Of a stretch of DNA of 64,000 bases, positions 4,978 to 55,033 are shown in pieces. Origin of the DNA: Escherichia coli (GTDB lineage Bacteria; Pseudomonadota; Gammaproteobacteria; Enterobacterales; Enterobacteriaceae); the NCBI RefSeq assembly GCF_044647545.1, contig NZ_CP172818.1. One strand, given 5' to 3'. Every line of letters begins with the position of its first letter. Position 1 is the stretch's first letter. The notes under the pieces are model-generated. The model worked only from the letters and a program-made list of their open reading frames with translations, made no database searches and had not been told where the DNA came from. The position numbers and the translations under genes are program-made.

Positions 4978-5131
4978 TTGCCGGATGCGGCGCTTGACGC
5001 GTTTTGTTTTGGTGTCTTCCAGGACAATAGAGCAACTCATCCAGTAATCTTGTTTACGCCTTCGCATTATTTAACTCTTTTCGTTTCTATACTGATTTTT
5101 CTGAATTCGTTTTATTACAGGGCAGGGTGCG

Positions 5132-5992
5132 ATGAGCAGCAATACATTTACTCTCGGTACAAAATCCGTTAACCGTCTTGGTTATGGCGCGATGCAACTG
5201 GCAGGTCCTGGGGTTTTTGGCCCCCCAAGAGATCGCCACGTCGCTATAACCGTGCTGCGTGAGGCGCTGGCATTGGGCGTCAATCACATTGATACCAGCG
5301 ACTTTTATGGTCCGCACGTCACCAATCAGATTATCCGCGAAGCGCTTTATCCTTACTCTGACGACCTGACCATTGTTACTAAAATTGGGGCGCGGCGTGG
5401 AGAGGACGCCTCCTGGTTGCCCGCATTTTCTCCGGCAGAGTTGCAAAAAGCGGTGCACGATAATCTACGTAATCTCGGGCTGGACGTACTGGATGTGGTT
5501 AACCTGCGCGTTATGATGGGGGATGGTCATGGCCCAGCGGAAGGATCGATTGAAGCCAGCCTGACCGTGCTGGCAGAGATGCAAGAACAAGGCCTGGTAA
5601 AACATATTGGCCTGAGCAACGTCACACCGACGCAGGTTGCAGAGGCGCGTAAGATTACCGAAATCGTCTGTGTGCAGAACGAATACAACATTGCTCATCG
5701 TGCTGATGACGCAATGATTGATGCTTTGGCTCGTGACGGCATTGCCTACGTGCCGTTCTTTCCGCTCGGGGGCTTTACGCCGCTGCAATCTTCAACGCTT
5801 TCCGATGTTGCTGCGAGCCTGGGTGCAACACCAATGCAGGTAGCGCTGGCGTGGCTGTTACAACGTTCACCGAATATTTTGTTGATTCCTGGAACATCTT
5901 CTGTTGCGCATTTACGGGAGAATATGGCCGCAGAAAAATTGCATCTTTCTGAGGAAGTGTTGTCTACGTTGGATGGTATTTCGCGAGAATAA
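5132..5992 (+). CDS. ydbC: Aldo-keto reductase family oxidoreductase
   Basis: 286-aa ORF with aldo-keto reductase motifs (…HIDTSDFYG…); Shine-Dalgarno-like site upstream. Confidence 0.85.
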   Translation: MSSNTFTLGTKSVNRLGYGAMQLAGPGVFGPPRDRHVAITVLREALALGVNHIDTSDFYGPHVTNQIIREALYPYSDDLTIVTKIGARRGEDASWLPAFSPAELQKAVHDNLRNLGLDVLDVVNLRVMMGDGHGPAEGSIEASLTVLAEMQEQGLVKHIGLSNVTPTQVAEARKITEIVCVQNEYNIAHRADDAMIDALARDGIAYVPFFPLGGFTPLQSSTLSDVAASLGATPMQVALAWLLQRSPNILLIPGTSSVAHLRENMAAEKLHLSEEVLSTLDGISRE

Positions 5993-6055: not shown

Positions 6056-8362
6056 ATGTTTAAGCCCAGGATTTGCAGCTGGATAGGTTTACTTCCCCTG
6101 TTTATGCTGAGTCTTCCAGTACAGGCGGACCTTCGATGTGTTGCAAATGCAGTTGATATTGAACCATTTTTTTCTGCGGCTACCGCTGAAGATAAACAAC
6201 AAGTTGAACAAGCTATCAACAGTAGCGTGAATCTTGTCCCCTTCGGTTTATCTGCATCGGACTGGAAAGTGCATCGTGGCGATTTAGTGGTAGACGGTAA
6301 TATAGAGAGTAATCAAAAATTGATTGTTCTTGGCAATTTGACAGTCAAAGGTAATATTTCCACTTTCTCTCTTTCTAATCCATGGGTTATTCTCGGTAAC
6401 GTGACGGCAACGAATATAGTTACGGATTCACCACTGTTAATTACCGGTTCGATAAATGCAAGTGGACTGGTATTTATCGACTCATATTACGATAATCCGT
6501 CTACGATTAAGGGGAGTATTAATGCGCGTGGGATATTTATCAATGACATAATTGCACCTGTTGTTGCGTCTTCGACAAATAGTGAATTCATGGTCCGTGC
6601 GAGTGACAAAAATGACACTGAAAATGTCAAAAAAGCGCTGATGATAATAAATCCTGATGCATATTATTGGGATCTAATAAATGATGAAGATGCTCTGAAA
6701 GAAATTTTTAAGCGAAGCAATATTCGCATGGCAGGGAATGTCTGTAATCTGATGAAAAAAGAAGCGCTGTTTCGCCCTAAGCCTTCTCCTGAGTTAGTGC
6801 AGGAATTGCAAATGCTGGATGAAGGCAACGTTGCTGCATTTGAAGGACGAGATATTGCGACATTTGATCTTGCCATAATGCGAACTCTCCCAAGGCTTAA
6901 AGGAATTTCAGCTAACCTACGCAAACAACTTATTAATAGCAATGATGGACAAACGATTGAAAGTATGGCGAGATATATGCCTGACAATGAGATTCTGGAG
7001 TTGACCGATCAGCAATTGGGTTACCAGCCTGTTGTTCTGGGGTTGCTCGACCGTGAACCGCTCTCTGTCGAAATAATGACGCGAATGAGTCATCTACCTG
7101 ATGGTGTCGGTCCGTTGAATCTTGCGCTACGTGAAAATCTCCCTCTGGATATCGTCATGACTCTGGCGAAAAGAGATTGGGATATGATCATTCAGGAGCT
7201 TTATAAAGATGCGTGGTTATTGCCCGAATCCATTATTGATGGCTATATCCGCAGTGATGATTCCTCTATTCGTCAGGTCGGTGCTGGAGGACAACTCACC
7301 TACAATCAGGCAATGCAGTTGGCGAACGATTCATCAAACGATGTTGTCACAAGCTTAGCGTCAAAGCTGGCAGAGATGAAACACCATGGTCAATTGTTGC
7401 GGATGACGCCACAAGAGAGTGACAAAATAGCAGTATATTTATACCAAAAATTCGAGAATGACGATGATCTAATAGGTGCGTTATTTTTAGCGTTGCCAGA
7501 TAACTTACAGTTTAATTTTGTTAAAAGGATGGAGAAAAAATCCCCTGCCTACTTTTGCTGTCGGGATATGCAGGTAATTCACTCTGACGCTGCTTTACAA
7601 CGGTTATTGACACGTTTCAACGATCCTGAGGGGTGGAGTAATCTGGCGAAAAATCAGTATCTGAGTACGGCGATGAAACAAAAAATTTGGCATCGCGCTT
7701 TATCGCATCGAAAAAATAATCCGAAAGCAGATTCTGCAGCATATGAAACCAGCGCTGATATGATTTTGTCGGAGCTTATCAGCTACGGTGAAGTTGATGA
7801 CCAGATGCTATTAAATGCCGCCTCTCTGATACGTTCGGAAGGCTGGGACTTTTTAGAGAGTGCATTAGTTAGTTGGGATAATTTACCCGCTGTTGTCCTC
7901 AAGGAATTACAGCAAAATATGCCACGCAATGATATTTGGGCGAAGTTTTTTCTGAGGCAGGAAAACAGCTCTCGTGCGCAGGTTAACGAAGCGTTACGTG
8001 TTTATTATGCACTAGACCCCGATGCGTTAGCACAACTGGATGTACTGGCAAAACAACCGGATCGTATATGGTGGAGTTCGCTGGCGAAAAGCAATCTTAC
8101 ATTTTTCAAGTTCGGTGCACTTAACAATCGCCATACACCGTCTGCGGCACTGGCGGCAGAAATTGATCCCGAGTGGTGGATTGTGGCGATGAATAATCCC
8201 CGTTTTCCAGTTGATGTATTAAAGGCGAGGCTGAAACGTGATCCTTTGCTGGCGTTAGAGCTTGTTAAACCTGAACTGGATTTAGTCCGCCAGCTGGCGC
8301 TTAACGGTAAGACGCGCGCAATACGGGAACAAGCGATGAGAAAACTTGATGAGTTGTATTGA
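6056..8362 (+). CDS. ydbD: Secreted protein YdbD of unknown function (signal peptide, beta-helix-like repeats, C-terminal helical repeats)
   Basis: 768-aa ORF from the ATG at 6056 (track ORF begins at an upstream GTG, 6050); N-terminal signal peptide …LSLPVQA. Confidence 0.8.
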   Translation: MFKPRICSWIGLLPLFMLSLPVQADLRCVANAVDIEPFFSAATAEDKQQVEQAINSSVNLVPFGLSASDWKVHRGDLVVDGNIESNQKLIVLGNLTVKGNISTFSLSNPWVILGNVTATNIVTDSPLLITGSINASGLVFIDSYYDNPSTIKGSINARGIFINDIIAPVVASSTNSEFMVRASDKNDTENVKKALMIINPDAYYWDLINDEDALKEIFKRSNIRMAGNVCNLMKKEALFRPKPSPELVQELQMLDEGNVAAFEGRDIATFDLAIMRTLPRLKGISANLRKQLINSNDGQTIESMARYMPDNEILELTDQQLGYQPVVLGLLDREPLSVEIMTRMSHLPDGVGPLNLALRENLPLDIVMTLAKRDWDMIIQELYKDAWLLPESIIDGYIRSDDSSIRQVGAGGQLTYNQAMQLANDSSNDVVTSLASKLAEMKHHGQLLRMTPQESDKIAVYLYQKFENDDDLIGALFLALPDNLQFNFVKRMEKKSPAYFCCRDMQVIHSDAALQRLLTRFNDPEGWSNLAKNQYLSTAMKQKIWHRALSHRKNNPKADSAAYETSADMILSELISYGEVDDQMLLNAASLIRSEGWDFLESALVSWDNLPAVVLKELQQNMPRNDIWAKFFLRQENSSRAQVNEALRVYYALDPDALAQLDVLAKQPDRIWWSSLAKSNLTFFKFGALNNRHTPSAALAAEIDPEWWIVAMNNPRFPVDVLKARLKRDPLLALELVKPELDLVRQLALNGKTRAIREQAMRKLDELY

Positions 8363-16900: not shown

Positions 16901-17875
16901 GATGAAAAAAACAAGAAGCTAAAAGAAGGGCGCTCATTACAGGATCTGAAAGACGCCCTGAAAGGCAAAGTGCAGGAAACGCTGTCTGCCGTGGCGGATG
17001 ACGGTATCGAGCAGAGCGGCTTACATATCTGGAGTTTTGGTCAGCTGCCGGAAAGCTACGAGCAGAAGCGCGGCAACTACAAAGTGAAGGCGTGGCCGGC
17101 GCTGGTGGATGAACGCGACAGCGTGGCGATCAAACTGTTTGATAATCCGCTGGAACAAAAGCAGGCAATGTGGAACGGTCTTCGCCGTCTACTGCTGCTG
17201 AATATTCCATCGCCGATCAAGTATTTGCATGAAAAGTTACCGAACAAAGCCAAGCTGGGGCTGTACTTTAACCCGTATGGCAAAGTGCTGGAGCTGATCG
17301 ACGACTGTATCTCCTGCGGGGTGGATCAACTGATCGACGCCAATGGTGGCCCGGTCTGGACGGAAGAAGGCTTTGCTGCGCTGCATGAGAAAGTGCGTGC
17401 CGAACTGAACGACACGGTGGTGGATATTGCGAAGCAGGTCGAGCAAATTCTTACGGCAGTGTTCAATATCAACAAACGTCTGAAAGGGCGGGTGGATATG
17501 ACCATGGCGCTGGGGCTTTCTGACATTAAAGCGCAGATGGGCGGGCTGGTGTATCGCGGTTTTGTGACTGGTAACGGCTTCAAACGGTTGGGCGACACGC
17601 TGCGTTATTTGCAGGCGATTGAAAAACGGCTGGAAAAACTGGCGGTTGACCCACATCGCGACCGTGCTCAGATGCTGAAAGTCGAAAATGTCCAGCAGGC
17701 GTGGCAGCAATGGATCAATAAACTGCCGCCCGCACGTCGTGAGGATGAAGACGTGAAAGAGATCCGTTGGATGATAGAAGAGTTGCGCGTTAGTTACTTC
17801 GCTCAACAACTTGGTACGCCTTATCCGATTTCAGATAAGCGTATTTTGCAGGCGATGGAGCAGATTAGCGGTTAA
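13973..17875 (+). CDS. hrpA: ATP-dependent RNA helicase HrpA (DEAH-box)
   Basis: 1300-aa ORF with Walker A (GETGSGKTTQ), DEAH (IIIDEAHERS) and the helicase C-terminal domains. Confidence 0.9.
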   Translation: MTEQQKLTFTALQQRLDSLMLRDRLRFSRRLHGVKKVKNPDAQQAIFQEMAKEIDQAAGKVLLREAARPEITYPDNLPVSQKKQDILEAIRDHQVVIVAGETGSGKTTQLPKICMELGRGIKGLIGHTQPRRLAARTVANRIAEELKTEPGGCIGYKVRFSDHVSDNTMVKLMTDGILLAEIQQDRLLMQYDTIIIDEAHERSLNIDFLLGYLKELLPRRPDLKIIITSATIDPERFSRHFNNAPIIEVSGRTYPVEVRYRPIVEEADDTERDQLQAIFDAVDELSQESPGDILIFMSGEREIRDTADALNKLNLRHTEILPLYARLSNSEQNRVFQSHSGRRIVLATNVAETSLTVPGIKYVIDPGTARISRYSYRTKVQRLPIEPISQASANQRKGRCGRVSEGICIRLYSEDDFLSRPEFTDPEILRTNLASVILQMTALGLGDIAAFPFVEAPDKRNIQDGVRLLEELGAITTDEQASAYKLTPLGRQLSQLPVDPRLARMVLEAQKHGCVREAMIITSALSIQDPRERPMDKQQASDEKHRRFHDKESDFLAFVNLWNYLGEQQKALSSNAFRRLCRTDYLNYLRVREWQDIYTQLRQVVKELGIPVNSEPAEYREIHIALLTGLLSHIGMKDADKQEYTGARNARFSIFPGSGLFKKPPKWVMVAELVETSRLWGRIAARIDPEWVEPVAQHLIKRTYSEPHWERAQGAVMATEKVTVYGLPIVAARKVNYSQIDPALCRELFIRHALVEGDWQTRHAFFRENLKLRAEVEELEHKSRRRDILVDDETLFEFYDQRISHDVISARHFDSWWKKVSRETPDLLNFEKSMLIKEGAEKISKLDYPNFWHQGNLKLRLSYQFEPGADADGVTVHIPLPLLNQVEESGFEWQIPGLRRELVIALIKSLPKPVRRNFVPAPNYAEAFLGRVTPLELPLLDSLERELRRMTGVTVDREDWHWDQVPDHLKITFRVVDEKNKKLKEGRSLQDLKDALKGKVQETLSAVADDGIEQSGLHIWSFGQLPESYEQKRGNYKVKAWPALVDERDSVAIKLFDNPLEQKQAMWNGLRRLLLLNIPSPIKYLHEKLPNKAKLGLYFNPYGKVLELIDDCISCGVDQLIDANGGPVWTEEGFAALHEKVRAELNDTVVDIAKQVEQILTAVFNINKRLKGRVDMTMALGLSDIKAQMGGLVYRGFVTGNGFKRLGDTLRYLQAIEKRLEKLAVDPHRDRAQMLKVENVQQAWQQWINKLPPARREDEDVKEIRWMIEELRVSYFAQQLGTPYPISDKRILQAMEQISG

Positions 17876-37363: not shown

Positions 37364-39325
37364 GTGACCGTATCTTCTCATCGACTTGAACTGTTAAGCC
37401 CGGCACGCGATGCCGCCATTGCCCGCGAAGCTATTTTGCACGGTGCCGATGCTGTTTATATCGGCGGCCCTGGTTTTGGTGCCCGTCATAATGCCAGTAA
37501 TAGCCTGAAAGATATTGCCGAGCTGGTGCCGTTTGCCCATCGTTATGGTGCAAAAATTTTCGTCACGCTTAACACAATTTTGCATGATGATGAGCTGGAA
37601 CCCGCGCAACGGCTGATTACTGACCTCTACCAGACCGGCGTCGATGCGCTGATTGTTCAGGATATGGGGATTCTGGAACTTGATATTCCGCCGATTGAAC
37701 TGCACGCCAGTACGCAGTGCGATATTCGCACAGTAGAAAAAGCGAAGTTCCTCTCTGATGTTGGCTTTACGCAGATTGTGCTGGCGCGAGAGCTGAATCT
37801 TGAGCAGATCCGCGCGATTCACCAGGCCACGGACGCGACCATTGAATTCTTTATTCATGGCGCACTGTGCGTGGCCTATTCGGGTCAGTGCTACATTTCT
37901 CATGCGCAAACAGGGCGTAGCGCCAACCGTGGCGATTGCTCGCAGGCGTGCCGTTTGCCATACACATTGAAAGACGATCAGGGGCGGGTGGTTTCCTATG
38001 AAAAACATCTGCTGTCGATGAAAGATAACGATCAGACTGCCAACCTCGGCGCGCTGATTGATGCTGGCGTACGCTCCTTCAAGATTGAAGGGCGTTACAA
38101 AGATATGAGCTACGTGAAGAATATCACCGCCCATTATCGCCAGATGCTGGATGCCATTATTGAAGAACGTGGCGATCTGACGCGTGCTTCATCAGGTCGT
38201 ACTGAACATTTCTTTGTTCCATCGACGGAAAAGACTTTCCACCGTGGTAGCACAGATTATTTTGTGAATGCCCGTAAAGGCGATATTGGCGCGTTCGATT
38301 CGCCGAAATTTATCGGCCTGCCGGTGGGCGAAGTATTGAAAGTAGCGAAAGATCATATTGATGTTGCCGTTACCGAGCCACTGGCAAATGGCGATGGCCT
38401 GAACGTGATGATTAAACGTGAAGTCGTCGGTTTTCGTGCCAATACGGTCGAGAAAACCGGAGAAAATCAGTACCGCGTCTGGCCCAATGAAATGCCAGCA
38501 GATTTGCACAAAATTCGCCCGCATCACCCACTAAACCGTAATCTTGATCATAACTGGCAGCAGGCACTGACAAAAACCTCCAGCGAACGTCGGGTGGCGG
38601 TAGACATTGAACTGGGCGGCTGGCAGGAACAACTGATTCTGACCCTCACCAGTGAAGAGGGTGTCAGCATCACGCATACGCTGGACGGGCAGTTCGACGA
38701 AGCCAATAACGCCGAAAAAGCAATGAACAATCTAAAGGATGGTCTGGCAAAACTGGGGCAAACCATCTATTACGCCCGCGATGTGCAAATTAATTTGCCG
38801 GGTGCGCTGTTTGTACCAAACAGTCTGTTAAACCAGTTCCGCCGTGAAGCCGCCGACATGCTGGATGCTGCACGTCTTGCCGGTTACCAGCGGGGCAGCC
38901 GTAAACCGGTTGCTGATCCTGCGCCGGTTTATCCGCAAACGCATCTGAGTTTCCTCGCGAACGTATACAACCAGAAAGCGCGTGAATTTTATCATCGCTA
39001 TGGTGTGCAACTGATTGACGCGGCGTATGAGGCACATGAAGAGAAGGGCGAAGTCCCGGTGATGATCACCAAGCATTGTCTGCGCTTTGCCTTCAATCTG
39101 TGCCCGAAACAGGCGAAAGGCAATATCAAAAGCTGGAAGGCGACGCCAATGCAACTGGTTAACGGCGATGAAGTATTAACGCTAAAGTTTGATTGCCGCC
39201 CATGCGAGATGCACGTCATTGGCAAAATCAAAAATCACATACTGAAAATGCCGTTACCGGGAAGCGTAGTGGCATCCGTAAGTCCGGATGATCTGCTGAA
39301 AACATTGCCGAAGCGAAAAGGGTAA
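37364..39325 (+). CDS. ydcP: Peptidase U32 family protein (YdcP/RlhA, implicated in 23S rRNA hydroxylation)
   Basis: 653 aa from the GTG at 37364 (MTVSSHRLELLSPARD…); the track ORF starts at an upstream GTG, 37322. Confidence 0.75.
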   Translation: MTVSSHRLELLSPARDAAIAREAILHGADAVYIGGPGFGARHNASNSLKDIAELVPFAHRYGAKIFVTLNTILHDDELEPAQRLITDLYQTGVDALIVQDMGILELDIPPIELHASTQCDIRTVEKAKFLSDVGFTQIVLARELNLEQIRAIHQATDATIEFFIHGALCVAYSGQCYISHAQTGRSANRGDCSQACRLPYTLKDDQGRVVSYEKHLLSMKDNDQTANLGALIDAGVRSFKIEGRYKDMSYVKNITAHYRQMLDAIIEERGDLTRASSGRTEHFFVPSTEKTFHRGSTDYFVNARKGDIGAFDSPKFIGLPVGEVLKVAKDHIDVAVTEPLANGDGLNVMIKREVVGFRANTVEKTGENQYRVWPNEMPADLHKIRPHHPLNRNLDHNWQQALTKTSSERRVAVDIELGGWQEQLILTLTSEEGVSITHTLDGQFDEANNAEKAMNNLKDGLAKLGQTIYYARDVQINLPGALFVPNSLLNQFRREAADMLDAARLAGYQRGSRKPVADPAPVYPQTHLSFLANVYNQKAREFYHRYGVQLIDAAYEAHEEKGEVPVMITKHCLRFAFNLCPKQAKGNIKSWKATPMQLVNGDEVLTLKFDCRPCEMHVIGKIKNHILKMPLPGSVVASVSPDDLLKTLPKRKG

Positions 39326-39370
39326 AACGTCAGTTTTCGGGTTACTCACCACTCATCAAATCTGCATGAT

Positions 39371-39405
39371 ATTGCCTGGCGGGTAAGGCGTCATGCCGCA
39401 TCCGG
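39371..39405. repeat. REP (repetitive extragenic palindrome) element
   Basis: Reverse complement TTGCCGGATGCGGCATGACGCCTTACCCGCCAGGC matches the REP consensus; sits in the convergent ydcP/yncJ gap. Confidence 0.6.
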
Positions 39406-39416
39406 CAACAAATGAC

Positions 39417-39647
39417 TCAACGCTGTCCCGCTTCTGGTTTGCGCGATTTTTGCCAGTAAAAATGCTCGCGCAAACCTTCCGCCGACTCTTCCGCCACAGC
39501 ACGCAATTCATCGCTGTCCGCTTCATGACGCAGCTGATGATCCACATTCTTTACCCACATAAATTCATGTCCTTTGTGCCCTGCCATGAGTTGTCCTGAG
39601 AACAGTGCACACGTTAATAAGACAACCGATAACGCCTTCGAAAACAT
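39417..39647 (-). CDS. yncJ: DUF2554 family secreted small protein
   Basis: 76-aa ORF with signal peptide (MFSKALSVVLLTCALFSGQLMA). Confidence 0.7.
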   Translation of the reverse strand: MFSKALSVVLLTCALFSGQLMAGHKGHEFMWVKNVDHQLRHEADSDELRAVAEESAEGLREHFYWQKSRKPEAGQR

Positions 39648-39868: not shown

Positions 39869-40045
39869 GTGAAACAAAGCGAGTTCAGACGTTGGCTCGA
39901 ATCTCAGGGCGTCGATGTAGCGAATGGCAGCAACCATTTAAAACTGAGGTTTCATGGGAGGCGCAGTGTCATGCCGCGTCACCCCTGCGATGAGATTAAA
40001 GAACCATTGCGTAAAGCAATCCTGAAACAACTCGGTTTGAGTTAA
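39869..40045 (+). CDS. hicA: Type II toxin HicA (mRNA interferase), 58 aa
   Basis: GTG start at 39869 behind a GGGAGG site; reads VKQSEFRRWLESQGVDVANGSNHLKLRFHG…; directly upstream of hicB. Confidence 0.8.
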   Translation: MKQSEFRRWLESQGVDVANGSNHLKLRFHGRRSVMPRHPCDEIKEPLRKAILKQLGLS

Positions 40046-40090
40046 TCGCCAATTAAAAAGGTTAATGACATGCGAGAGACAGTCGAAATT

Positions 40091-40507
<417 letters not shown>

Positions 40508-42236: not shown

Positions 42237-43382
42237 ATGAGCAAGACATTTGCCCGCAGCAGCCTGTGTGCGCTTACCATGACATTAATGACCGCCCACG
42301 CCGCCGAACCTCCCACAAATTTAGATAAACCGGAAGGGCGACTGGATATTATCGCCTGGCCGGGATACATCGAACGCGGACAAACTGATAAACAATACGA
42401 CTGGGTAACGCAATTCGAAAAAGAGACAGGCTGCGCGGTGAATGTGAAAACCGCCGCGACTTCCGATGAAATGGTCAGTCTGATGACCAAAGGGGGTTAC
42501 GATCTGGTTACGGCATCCGGCGATGCCTCGCTGCGCCTGATTATGGGCAAACGCGTGCAGCCGATTAATACCGCATTGATTCCCAACTGGAAAGCGCTCG
42601 ATCCGCGCGTGGTTAAAGGCGACTGGTTTAACGTTGGCGGCAAAGTTTACGGCACACCTTACCAATGGGGGCCGAACCTGCTGATGTACAACACTAAAAC
42701 CTTCCCGACGCCGCCGAATAGCTGGCAAGTGGTTTTTGTTGAGCAGAATCTGCCGGACGGCAAGAGCAATAAAGGCCGCGTTCAGGCTTATGATGGCCCT
42801 ATCTACATTGCGGACGCTGCGTTGTTCGTTAAAGCCACTCAGCCACAGTTGGGCATCAGCGATCCGTATCAACTCACCGAAGAACAGTACCAGGCGGTGC
42901 TGAAAGTGCTGCGCGATCAACATAGTTTGATCCATCGCTACTGGCATGACACTACCGTGCAAATGAGCGATTTCAAAAACGAGGGTGTGGTTGCTTCCAG
43001 TGCATGGCCCTATCAGGCCAACGCCCTGAAAGCCGAAGGCCAGCCTGTCGCTACCGTTTTCCCGAAGGAGGGCGTTACCGGTTGGGCTGATACCACCATG
43101 CTACATAGCGAAGCGAAACATCCGGTTTGCGCCTACAAATGGATGAACTGGTCATTAACCCCAAAAGTGCAGGGCGATGTAGCGGCCTGGTTTGGCTCGC
43201 TACCGGTAGTGCCGCAAGGGTGTAAAGCCAGTCCGTTATTAGGCGAGAAAGGTTGTGAAACAAACGGTTTTAACTATTTCGATAAAATCGCCTTCTGGAA
43301 AACGCCTATCGCAGAAGGGGGCAAGTTTGTTCCCTACAGTCGCTGGACGCAGGATTACATTGCCATTATGGGTGGTCGCTAA
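42237..43382 (+). CDS. ydcS: Periplasmic polyamine-binding protein of an ABC transporter
   Basis: 381-aa ORF with signal peptide (…MTLMTAHAAEP); PotD/PotF-like. Confidence 0.85.
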   Translation: MSKTFARSSLCALTMTLMTAHAAEPPTNLDKPEGRLDIIAWPGYIERGQTDKQYDWVTQFEKETGCAVNVKTAATSDEMVSLMTKGGYDLVTASGDASLRLIMGKRVQPINTALIPNWKALDPRVVKGDWFNVGGKVYGTPYQWGPNLLMYNTKTFPTPPNSWQVVFVEQNLPDGKSNKGRVQAYDGPIYIADAALFVKATQPQLGISDPYQLTEEQYQAVLKVLRDQHSLIHRYWHDTTVQMSDFKNEGVVASSAWPYQANALKAEGQPVATVFPKEGVTGWADTTMLHSEAKHPVCAYKWMNWSLTPKVQGDVAAWFGSLPVVPQGCKASPLLGEKGCETNGFNYFDKIAFWKTPIAEGGKFVPYSRWTQDYIAIMGGR

Positions 43383-54952: not shown

Positions 54953-55033
54953 TAGATATGGCGAGGGTGAAAACGGAGAGACTTGCCTGACTTTTATCAC
55001 GCCGTATCCGGCACCTTCGTCAGTAATTTGAAT

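Follow-up and report, generated by a model that had tools for sequence, protein, structure and literature searches.

A degenerate, solitary Y-type REP element in the Escherichia-specific spacer between the convergent genes rlhA and yncJ

The Y-type REP of E. coli, or palindromic unit, is an extragenic sequence of about 34 nt (Stern 1984; Bachellier 1999; Ton-Hoang 2012, PMC3333891). It is dispersed over the genome, carries an AA/GC mismatch in its stem together with a GTAG/CTAC tetranucleotide 5' of the stem foot, and 84 of the 584 REPs of K-12 occur singly. GTAG plus the stem mismatch are required for binding and cleavage by TnpA_REP (PMC3333891). The loops of REPs are also the target sites of IS1397, which in CFT073 is inserted between GCGGCGTG and AACGCC (PMC1525189, supplement 13). 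At the RNA level, Dar and Sorek described Rho-dependent transcripts that end precisely just 3' of stable stem-loops lacking a U-tract, 24% of them at REPs, with PNPase and RNase II trimming back to such stem-loops (PMC6061677). Translation is lowered by REPs located no more than 15 nt past a stop codon, as the work of Liang, Rudd and Deutscher (2015) is summarised in PMC12306157.

A REP of this thoroughly known, ordinary kind is present as a worn single copy between the genes rlhA and yncJ in the window, that is, the whole stretch of E. coli DNA analysed here (64 kb). The 251 bases around the REP are 100% identical to strain FDAARGOS_497, and the gene coordinates are those of the RefSeq annotation of this strain, transferred to the window. 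The locus contains the following features:

37364-39325, plus strand: rlhA (ydcP), 23S rRNA 5-hydroxycytidine C2501 synthase by RefSeq annotation, with Pfam Peptidase_U32 and DUF3656
39326-39416, no strand: spacer between the convergent stop codons, 91 bp, Escherichia-specific
39356-39547, minus strand: 63-aa open reading frame, an artefact, one frame off yncJ and spanning the REP
39374-39406, minus strand: degenerate Y-type REP core, 33 nt, reading GCCGGATGCGGCATGACGCCTTACCCGCCAGGC on the minus strand (yncJ-mRNA sense), identified by consensus, covariance model and copy number
39374-39377, plus strand: position expected for GTAG, here GCCT, 1/4 matching in a position-by-position consensus comparison
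39378-39406, no strand: imperfect hairpin with arms 39378-39390 and 39394-39406 and loop 39391-39393, from model alignment and RNA folding
39379, no strand: rare C-to-G change that breaks an outer stem pair, in the window allele only among 10 aligned alleles
39394, no strand: C-to-T change in the innermost stem pair, giving a G.U wobble on the plus strand and an A x C mismatch on the minus strand, common to ST131
39417-39647, minus strand: yncJ by RefSeq annotation, with Pfam DUF2554 (E=2.2e-51)

The two genes are convergent, and their stop codons (TAA of rlhA at 39323-39325 on the plus strand, TGA of yncJ at 39419-39417 on the minus strand) leave the 91-bp gap that the first-pass annotation had given. 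The REP is extragenic and lies within this stop-to-stop gap. The rlhA stop codon is found 48 nt upstream of the REP core and, in mRNA sense, the yncJ stop codon 10 nt upstream of it. Just past yncJ lies a HicAB toxin-antitoxin pair (hicA/hicB, window 39869-40507). In the strains E7-1N7 (7998-8075 of the locus sequence) and 24A16CRGN010 (2081-2317), hicA is unannotated and hicB is annotated as a pseudogene without its N-terminus.

The Y-type REP consensus was verified on 235 kb of K-12; real K-12 REPs (aceA-aceK, pgi, malE-malF, lamB-malM, srmB and cstA-ybdD) score 30-34 out of 34 against it. Its best semi-global score in the window, 19, falls on the REP, and the null maxima in 30 Markov simulations of the window are 8-13. 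A covariance model was built from 12 unrelated K-12 REPs, aligned on the known stem of 12 pairs. Run over the 64 kb with filters off, it gives a sole significant match at 39372-39410 on the minus strand (23.6 bits, E=4.7e-4), the runner-up reaching 9.8 bits (E=2.1). The copy number points in the same direction. The 38-nt element recurs in 5425 of 5426 E. coli genomes, with a median of 40 or more places per genome, the dispersal expected of a Y-type REP. The 51 nt of the gap next to it, taken as a control, occur at exactly 1 place per genome, and the non-REP remainder of the gap is single-copy. The left arm, GCCGGATGCGGC, agrees with the Y type at 12 of 12 positions, and the AA/GC mismatch bubble is retained at 39385-39386 and 39398-39399 in the model alignment. 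On these sequence comparisons, the element is a real REP-derived one, far above chance.

The REP that had been placed in the convergent gap is consequently upheld by the consensus, the covariance model and the copy number, and a scan with a REP consensus model, which had been put forward as a check, does give a match at the site. It was also rightly described as single: neither the consensus scan nor the covariance model finds a partner, and they detected no second decayed REP or other repeat in the 57 nt of the gap that lie outside it. In this, it resembles the K-12 REPs that occur singly. Its earlier placement at 39371-39405 concerns the same REP, with an offset of 2-3 nt from the core determined here. 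In Rfam, which has no general REP family, the only REP-derived family is naRNA4 (derived from REP325). It gives a partial, sub-threshold match (17.7 bits, E=1.3, gathering score 59.5), all other matches being noise. The RefSeq record of MG1655 carries no REP feature in the gap. Since it carries none either at the control region 5,560-5,670, which holds a known REP pair, this absence is uninformative.

The copy is clearly worn. In an independent K-12 test (100 kb left out of model training), the model gives 54-66 bits for intact Y REPs and 26-34 bits for the other REP types, whereas the window copy remains at 23.6 bits. Compared with the Y type, it lacks the GTAG/CTAC tetranucleotide, is one loop base short and has two extra stem pairs damaged. 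Two of the 12 covariance-model pairs score as negative non-canonical ones; the minus strand has a further mismatch at A39401 x C39383. Of the 12 stem pairs, 10 form on the plus strand (two of them wobbles) and 9 on the minus strand. According to the ten-allele alignment, the low score results from the stem substitutions G39379 and T39394, which also take the hairpin from about -19 to -21 kcal/mol to -15. The predicted RNA hairpin of the plus strand has an energy of -15.0 kcal/mol; on the minus strand (yncJ sense), the REP hairpin is not the minimum-energy fold (-13.0). The predicted hairpins of the other alleles and of the consensus range from -18 to -21 kcal/mol. The REP fold is no better than that of shuffled sequence (z -0.45 to -0.85), and a repeat search found no perfect repeat arm of at least 6 nt for the REP. 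At 99% identity or more, the 38-mer of the window is found in only 112 records. The term canonical palindrome, used in the first-pass annotation, does not fit an element with broken pairs, no perfect arm, such z-scores and a score well under that of intact copies. By its alignment and score, it is a degenerate Y-type copy decayed by mutation.

Orthologous copies of the REP were scored with the same covariance model:

E. whittamii: 57.8 bits
DETEC-S586: 51.2 bits
24A16CRGN010: 50.5 bits
K-12: 40.7 bits
NU14: 37.9 bits
ST131: 33.3 bits
Escherichia sp. MOD1-EC7003: 27.1 bits

Among the sampled orthologous copies that still give a match (27-58 bits for the others), the window copy is the lowest. 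YncJ-encoding loci were also scanned more widely, in one genome per species (47 loci). In 36 non-Escherichia loci of Enterobacteriaceae (Citrobacter, Leclercia, Enterobacter, Lelliottia, Silvania, Huaxiibacter and Salmonella enterica subsp. arizonae), the distance between the rlhA and yncJ stops is only -4 to +3 nt, and exactly 0 in 24 of them; none of the 36 has a REP between the two genes. With stops that abut or overlap, the convergent transcripts must overlap in those genera. The gap is 91-106 nt in six Escherichia loci, and in five of these (E. coli, E. whittamii and three other lineages) a Y REP starts 10 nt past the yncJ stop. E. albertii NBRC 107761 (about 1432-1540 of the locus sequence; gap of 106 nt) has lost the right arm of the REP, and the left arm, TTGCCGGATGCAACGTA, stands alone. 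Beside its rlhA stop lies another hairpin, which carries a T-run (AATAGCCCGATA...TATCGGGCTATTTT).

Because the stops abut in the 36 other loci and are 91-106 nt apart in Escherichia, the whole spacer, REP included, was inserted in the Escherichia lineage and has been decaying since. The REP and about 57 nt of unique spacer arrived between rlhA and yncJ in an ancestor of the genus. Across ten alleles, the REP has no lower share of variable columns (9/34) than the rest of the gap (11/57). A manual reading gives 3/20 variable sites in the stem, 6/14 in non-stem positions and 11/57 in the flank, differences that are not significant with so few alleles.

The loop of an orthologous copy has been invaded by a mobile element. 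In E7-1N7, a 1432-bp IS3-family element with TG...CA ends (6146-7577 of the locus sequence) is located inside the REP loop, with a duplication of TAC. Its insertion point, between GGCGTA and ACGCC, corresponds to the REP loop of the window at about 39391-39393. Two more copies of this IS were found, both in REP loops and with 4-bp duplications: one at yhaL/cyuA in E7-1N7, the other at yghU/hybG in FDAARGOS_497. The loop position and the behaviour match those published for IS1397, a likeness drawn from the insertion site. The insertion indicates that, to a REP-specific mobile element, the intact allele of this locus counts as a REP. Unlike the targets of IS1397, the window REP itself carries no IS.

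Both strands of the REP are probably transcribed, as rlhA-yncJ is among the 165 convergent pairs for which ExcludonFinder reports overlapping transcripts in half or more of 58 RNA-seq data sets from MG1655 (PMC12288877). The sequence past the stem, CAACAAATG on the plus strand and AATATCATG on the minus strand, has no T-run on either strand, and zero terminator-like sites were found on both strands between 39000 and 40100. A promoter-like site at 39394-39366 on the minus strand was set aside as a chance match (2 sites against 1.3 expected). Over the 100-150 nt that follow the REP in rlhA sense, the C/G ratio of the RNA is 1.8-1.9. This exceeds the 95th percentile for the window (1.73), and the stretch resembles a Rho-utilisation site. 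In yncJ sense, this ratio is about 1.0. The window REP shares with the Rho-dependent stem-loops of PMC6061677 the lack of a U-tract, a position just past the end of a gene and, for rlhA, a C-rich and G-poor downstream RNA. It differs from them in being one weak hairpin and not a BIME pair.

The explanation that accounts best for these data, and that we consider rather probable, is a solitary decayed Y REP, inserted in the ancestor of Escherichia, that would form a weak barrier to 3' exonucleases, mainly on the rlhA mRNA. Both convergent mRNAs would include the REP in their overlapping 3' ends, and its sole likely activity would be that of an RNA stem-loop lacking a U-tract. Termination would take place further downstream, and Rho-dependent termination is proposed for rlhA, whose downstream RNA has more C than G. 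The 3'-to-5' exonucleases PNPase and RNase II would then trim the transcripts back to the REP hairpin. Such an exonuclease-blocking stem-loop is the most likely role of the REP. The hairpin is better preserved on the plus strand, where the G.U wobbles hold it at -15 kcal/mol, so the effect would be stronger for the rlhA mRNA. In yncJ sense, another fold is now favoured over the REP hairpin, and in the window strain the effect on the yncJ mRNA would therefore be weak or absent. A transcript-stabilising role, which had been suggested for REPs in general, is thus plausible for this copy but weakened; in this strain the REP is probably at most a weak RNA-stabilising hairpin.

It is also possible, if less likely, that the copy is an inert relic, a selfish or neutral repeat in decay with no present function in the window strain. 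The density of variable sites is at least that of the flank, which together with the half-loss in E. albertii gives no sign of selective constraint, and the copy may do nothing. The loss of GTAG, the lowest model score among the matching orthologs, the non-significant fold z-score and the ancestral arrangement without any spacer agree with such a relic. However, the same position has been kept across the genus, most E. coli alleles hold hairpins of -18 to -21 kcal/mol, and a stem-loop of -15 kcal/mol may still impede exonucleases.

The position of the element raises a further, rather doubtful option, namely that it down-regulates the translation of yncJ. A REP hairpin less than 16 nt past the stop would stall the terminating ribosome and lead to mRNA cleavage and tmRNA tagging. 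The REP core begins 10 nt past the TGA of yncJ, within the distance of up to 15 nt given for Liang, Rudd and Deutscher (2015) in PMC12306157, and this 10-nt spacing is kept in all Escherichia copies. Unlike those REPs, the window copy has a destabilised yncJ-sense hairpin, with 3 of 12 pairs broken and a fold that is not the best one (-13.0). Because of this disruption, control of yncJ translation is doubtful in the window strain; it would be likelier in K-12-type alleles (-18 to -19 kcal/mol). A search for literature linking yncJ with REP found none.

A bidirectional transcription terminator separating the convergent genes would suit a G+C-rich stem-loop placed between them. This is very unlikely, as no T-run is present on either side, no terminator-like site was detected, the convergent transcripts of MG1655 are reported to overlap (PMC12288877), and the relatives cope with a gap of 0 nt. 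The terminating role that had been mentioned for REPs is hence not expected here.

That the element is active at the DNA level, as a substrate for the REP-associated transposase or as a BIME-type site bound by gyrase or IHF, is the least probable reading: although the element belongs to the REP family and related alleles can take a REP-loop-specific IS, the GTAG needed for TnpA_REP binding and cleavage (PMC3333891) is GCCT here, and no second inverted REP or linker is present, hence no BIME. The stem mismatch demanded by TnpA_REP is present, but since GTAG is lacking, the window copy is unlikely to be a TnpA_REP (RAYT) substrate, and the role of transposase target, which the first-pass annotation gave for REPs in general, is not supported for it. 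The tetranucleotide varies in other alleles, being GTCG in those of E7-1N7 and 24A16CRGN010 and ATAG (CTAT on the other strand) in E. whittamii. Neither the consensus scan nor the covariance model revealed a second REP in the gap or nearby with which a BIME could be formed.

The 63-aa open reading frame overlapping the REP had already been regarded as an artefact, and this view is confirmed. It has no Pfam match, it runs in a frame other than that of yncJ, and the RefSeq annotation of the strain identical over the locus does not list it. K-12-type alleles do not conserve its stop, and its tail is encoded by the REP itself (...AGCGMTPYPPGN...).

REPs being among the best-described bacterial repeats, the finding matters little in itself. 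Its contribution is that a REP-spanning reading frame is kept from being mistaken for a gene, that the label canonical is corrected, and that the 91-bp spacer with its REP is dated as an Escherichia-specific insertion between genes whose stops otherwise abut. The orthologous copies also provide a natural allele series for testing the effects of REPs on mRNA 3' ends or on translation termination. At 10 nt past the yncJ stop, this series runs from the near-consensus copy of E. whittamii (58 bits) through the decayed one of the window (24 bits) to the half-deleted copy of E. albertii. If REP hairpins so near a stop codon truly throttle translation, differences in YncJ between lineages are expected. 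It is a speculative and improbable extension of this that the output of YncJ, and possibly the stability of the rlhA mRNA, differs among Escherichia lineages, with the window strain as a natural partial loss of control.

Elsewhere, the 64-kb window contains no intact REP; the match of 23.6 bits is the only one to the Y model, and the best score against the Z1 or Z2 consensus is 11. For contrast, another 100 kb of K-12 holds 5 intact Y copies and about 6 of other types. At window 43125-43138, GTTTGC followed by GCCTACAA resembles the flanks of a REP without the palindrome (9.8 bits, E=2.1) and is probably due to chance. Half-REP remnants are found at 4979-5012 and 54997-55013 (TTGCCGGATGCGGCGCTTGACGCG and CACGCCGTATCCGGCAC), neither being significant with the Y-type model. 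At 17814-17850, ACGCCTTATCCGATTTCAGATAAGCGTATTTT, an imperfect inverted repeat with a T-run behind it, is terminator-like and not a REP.
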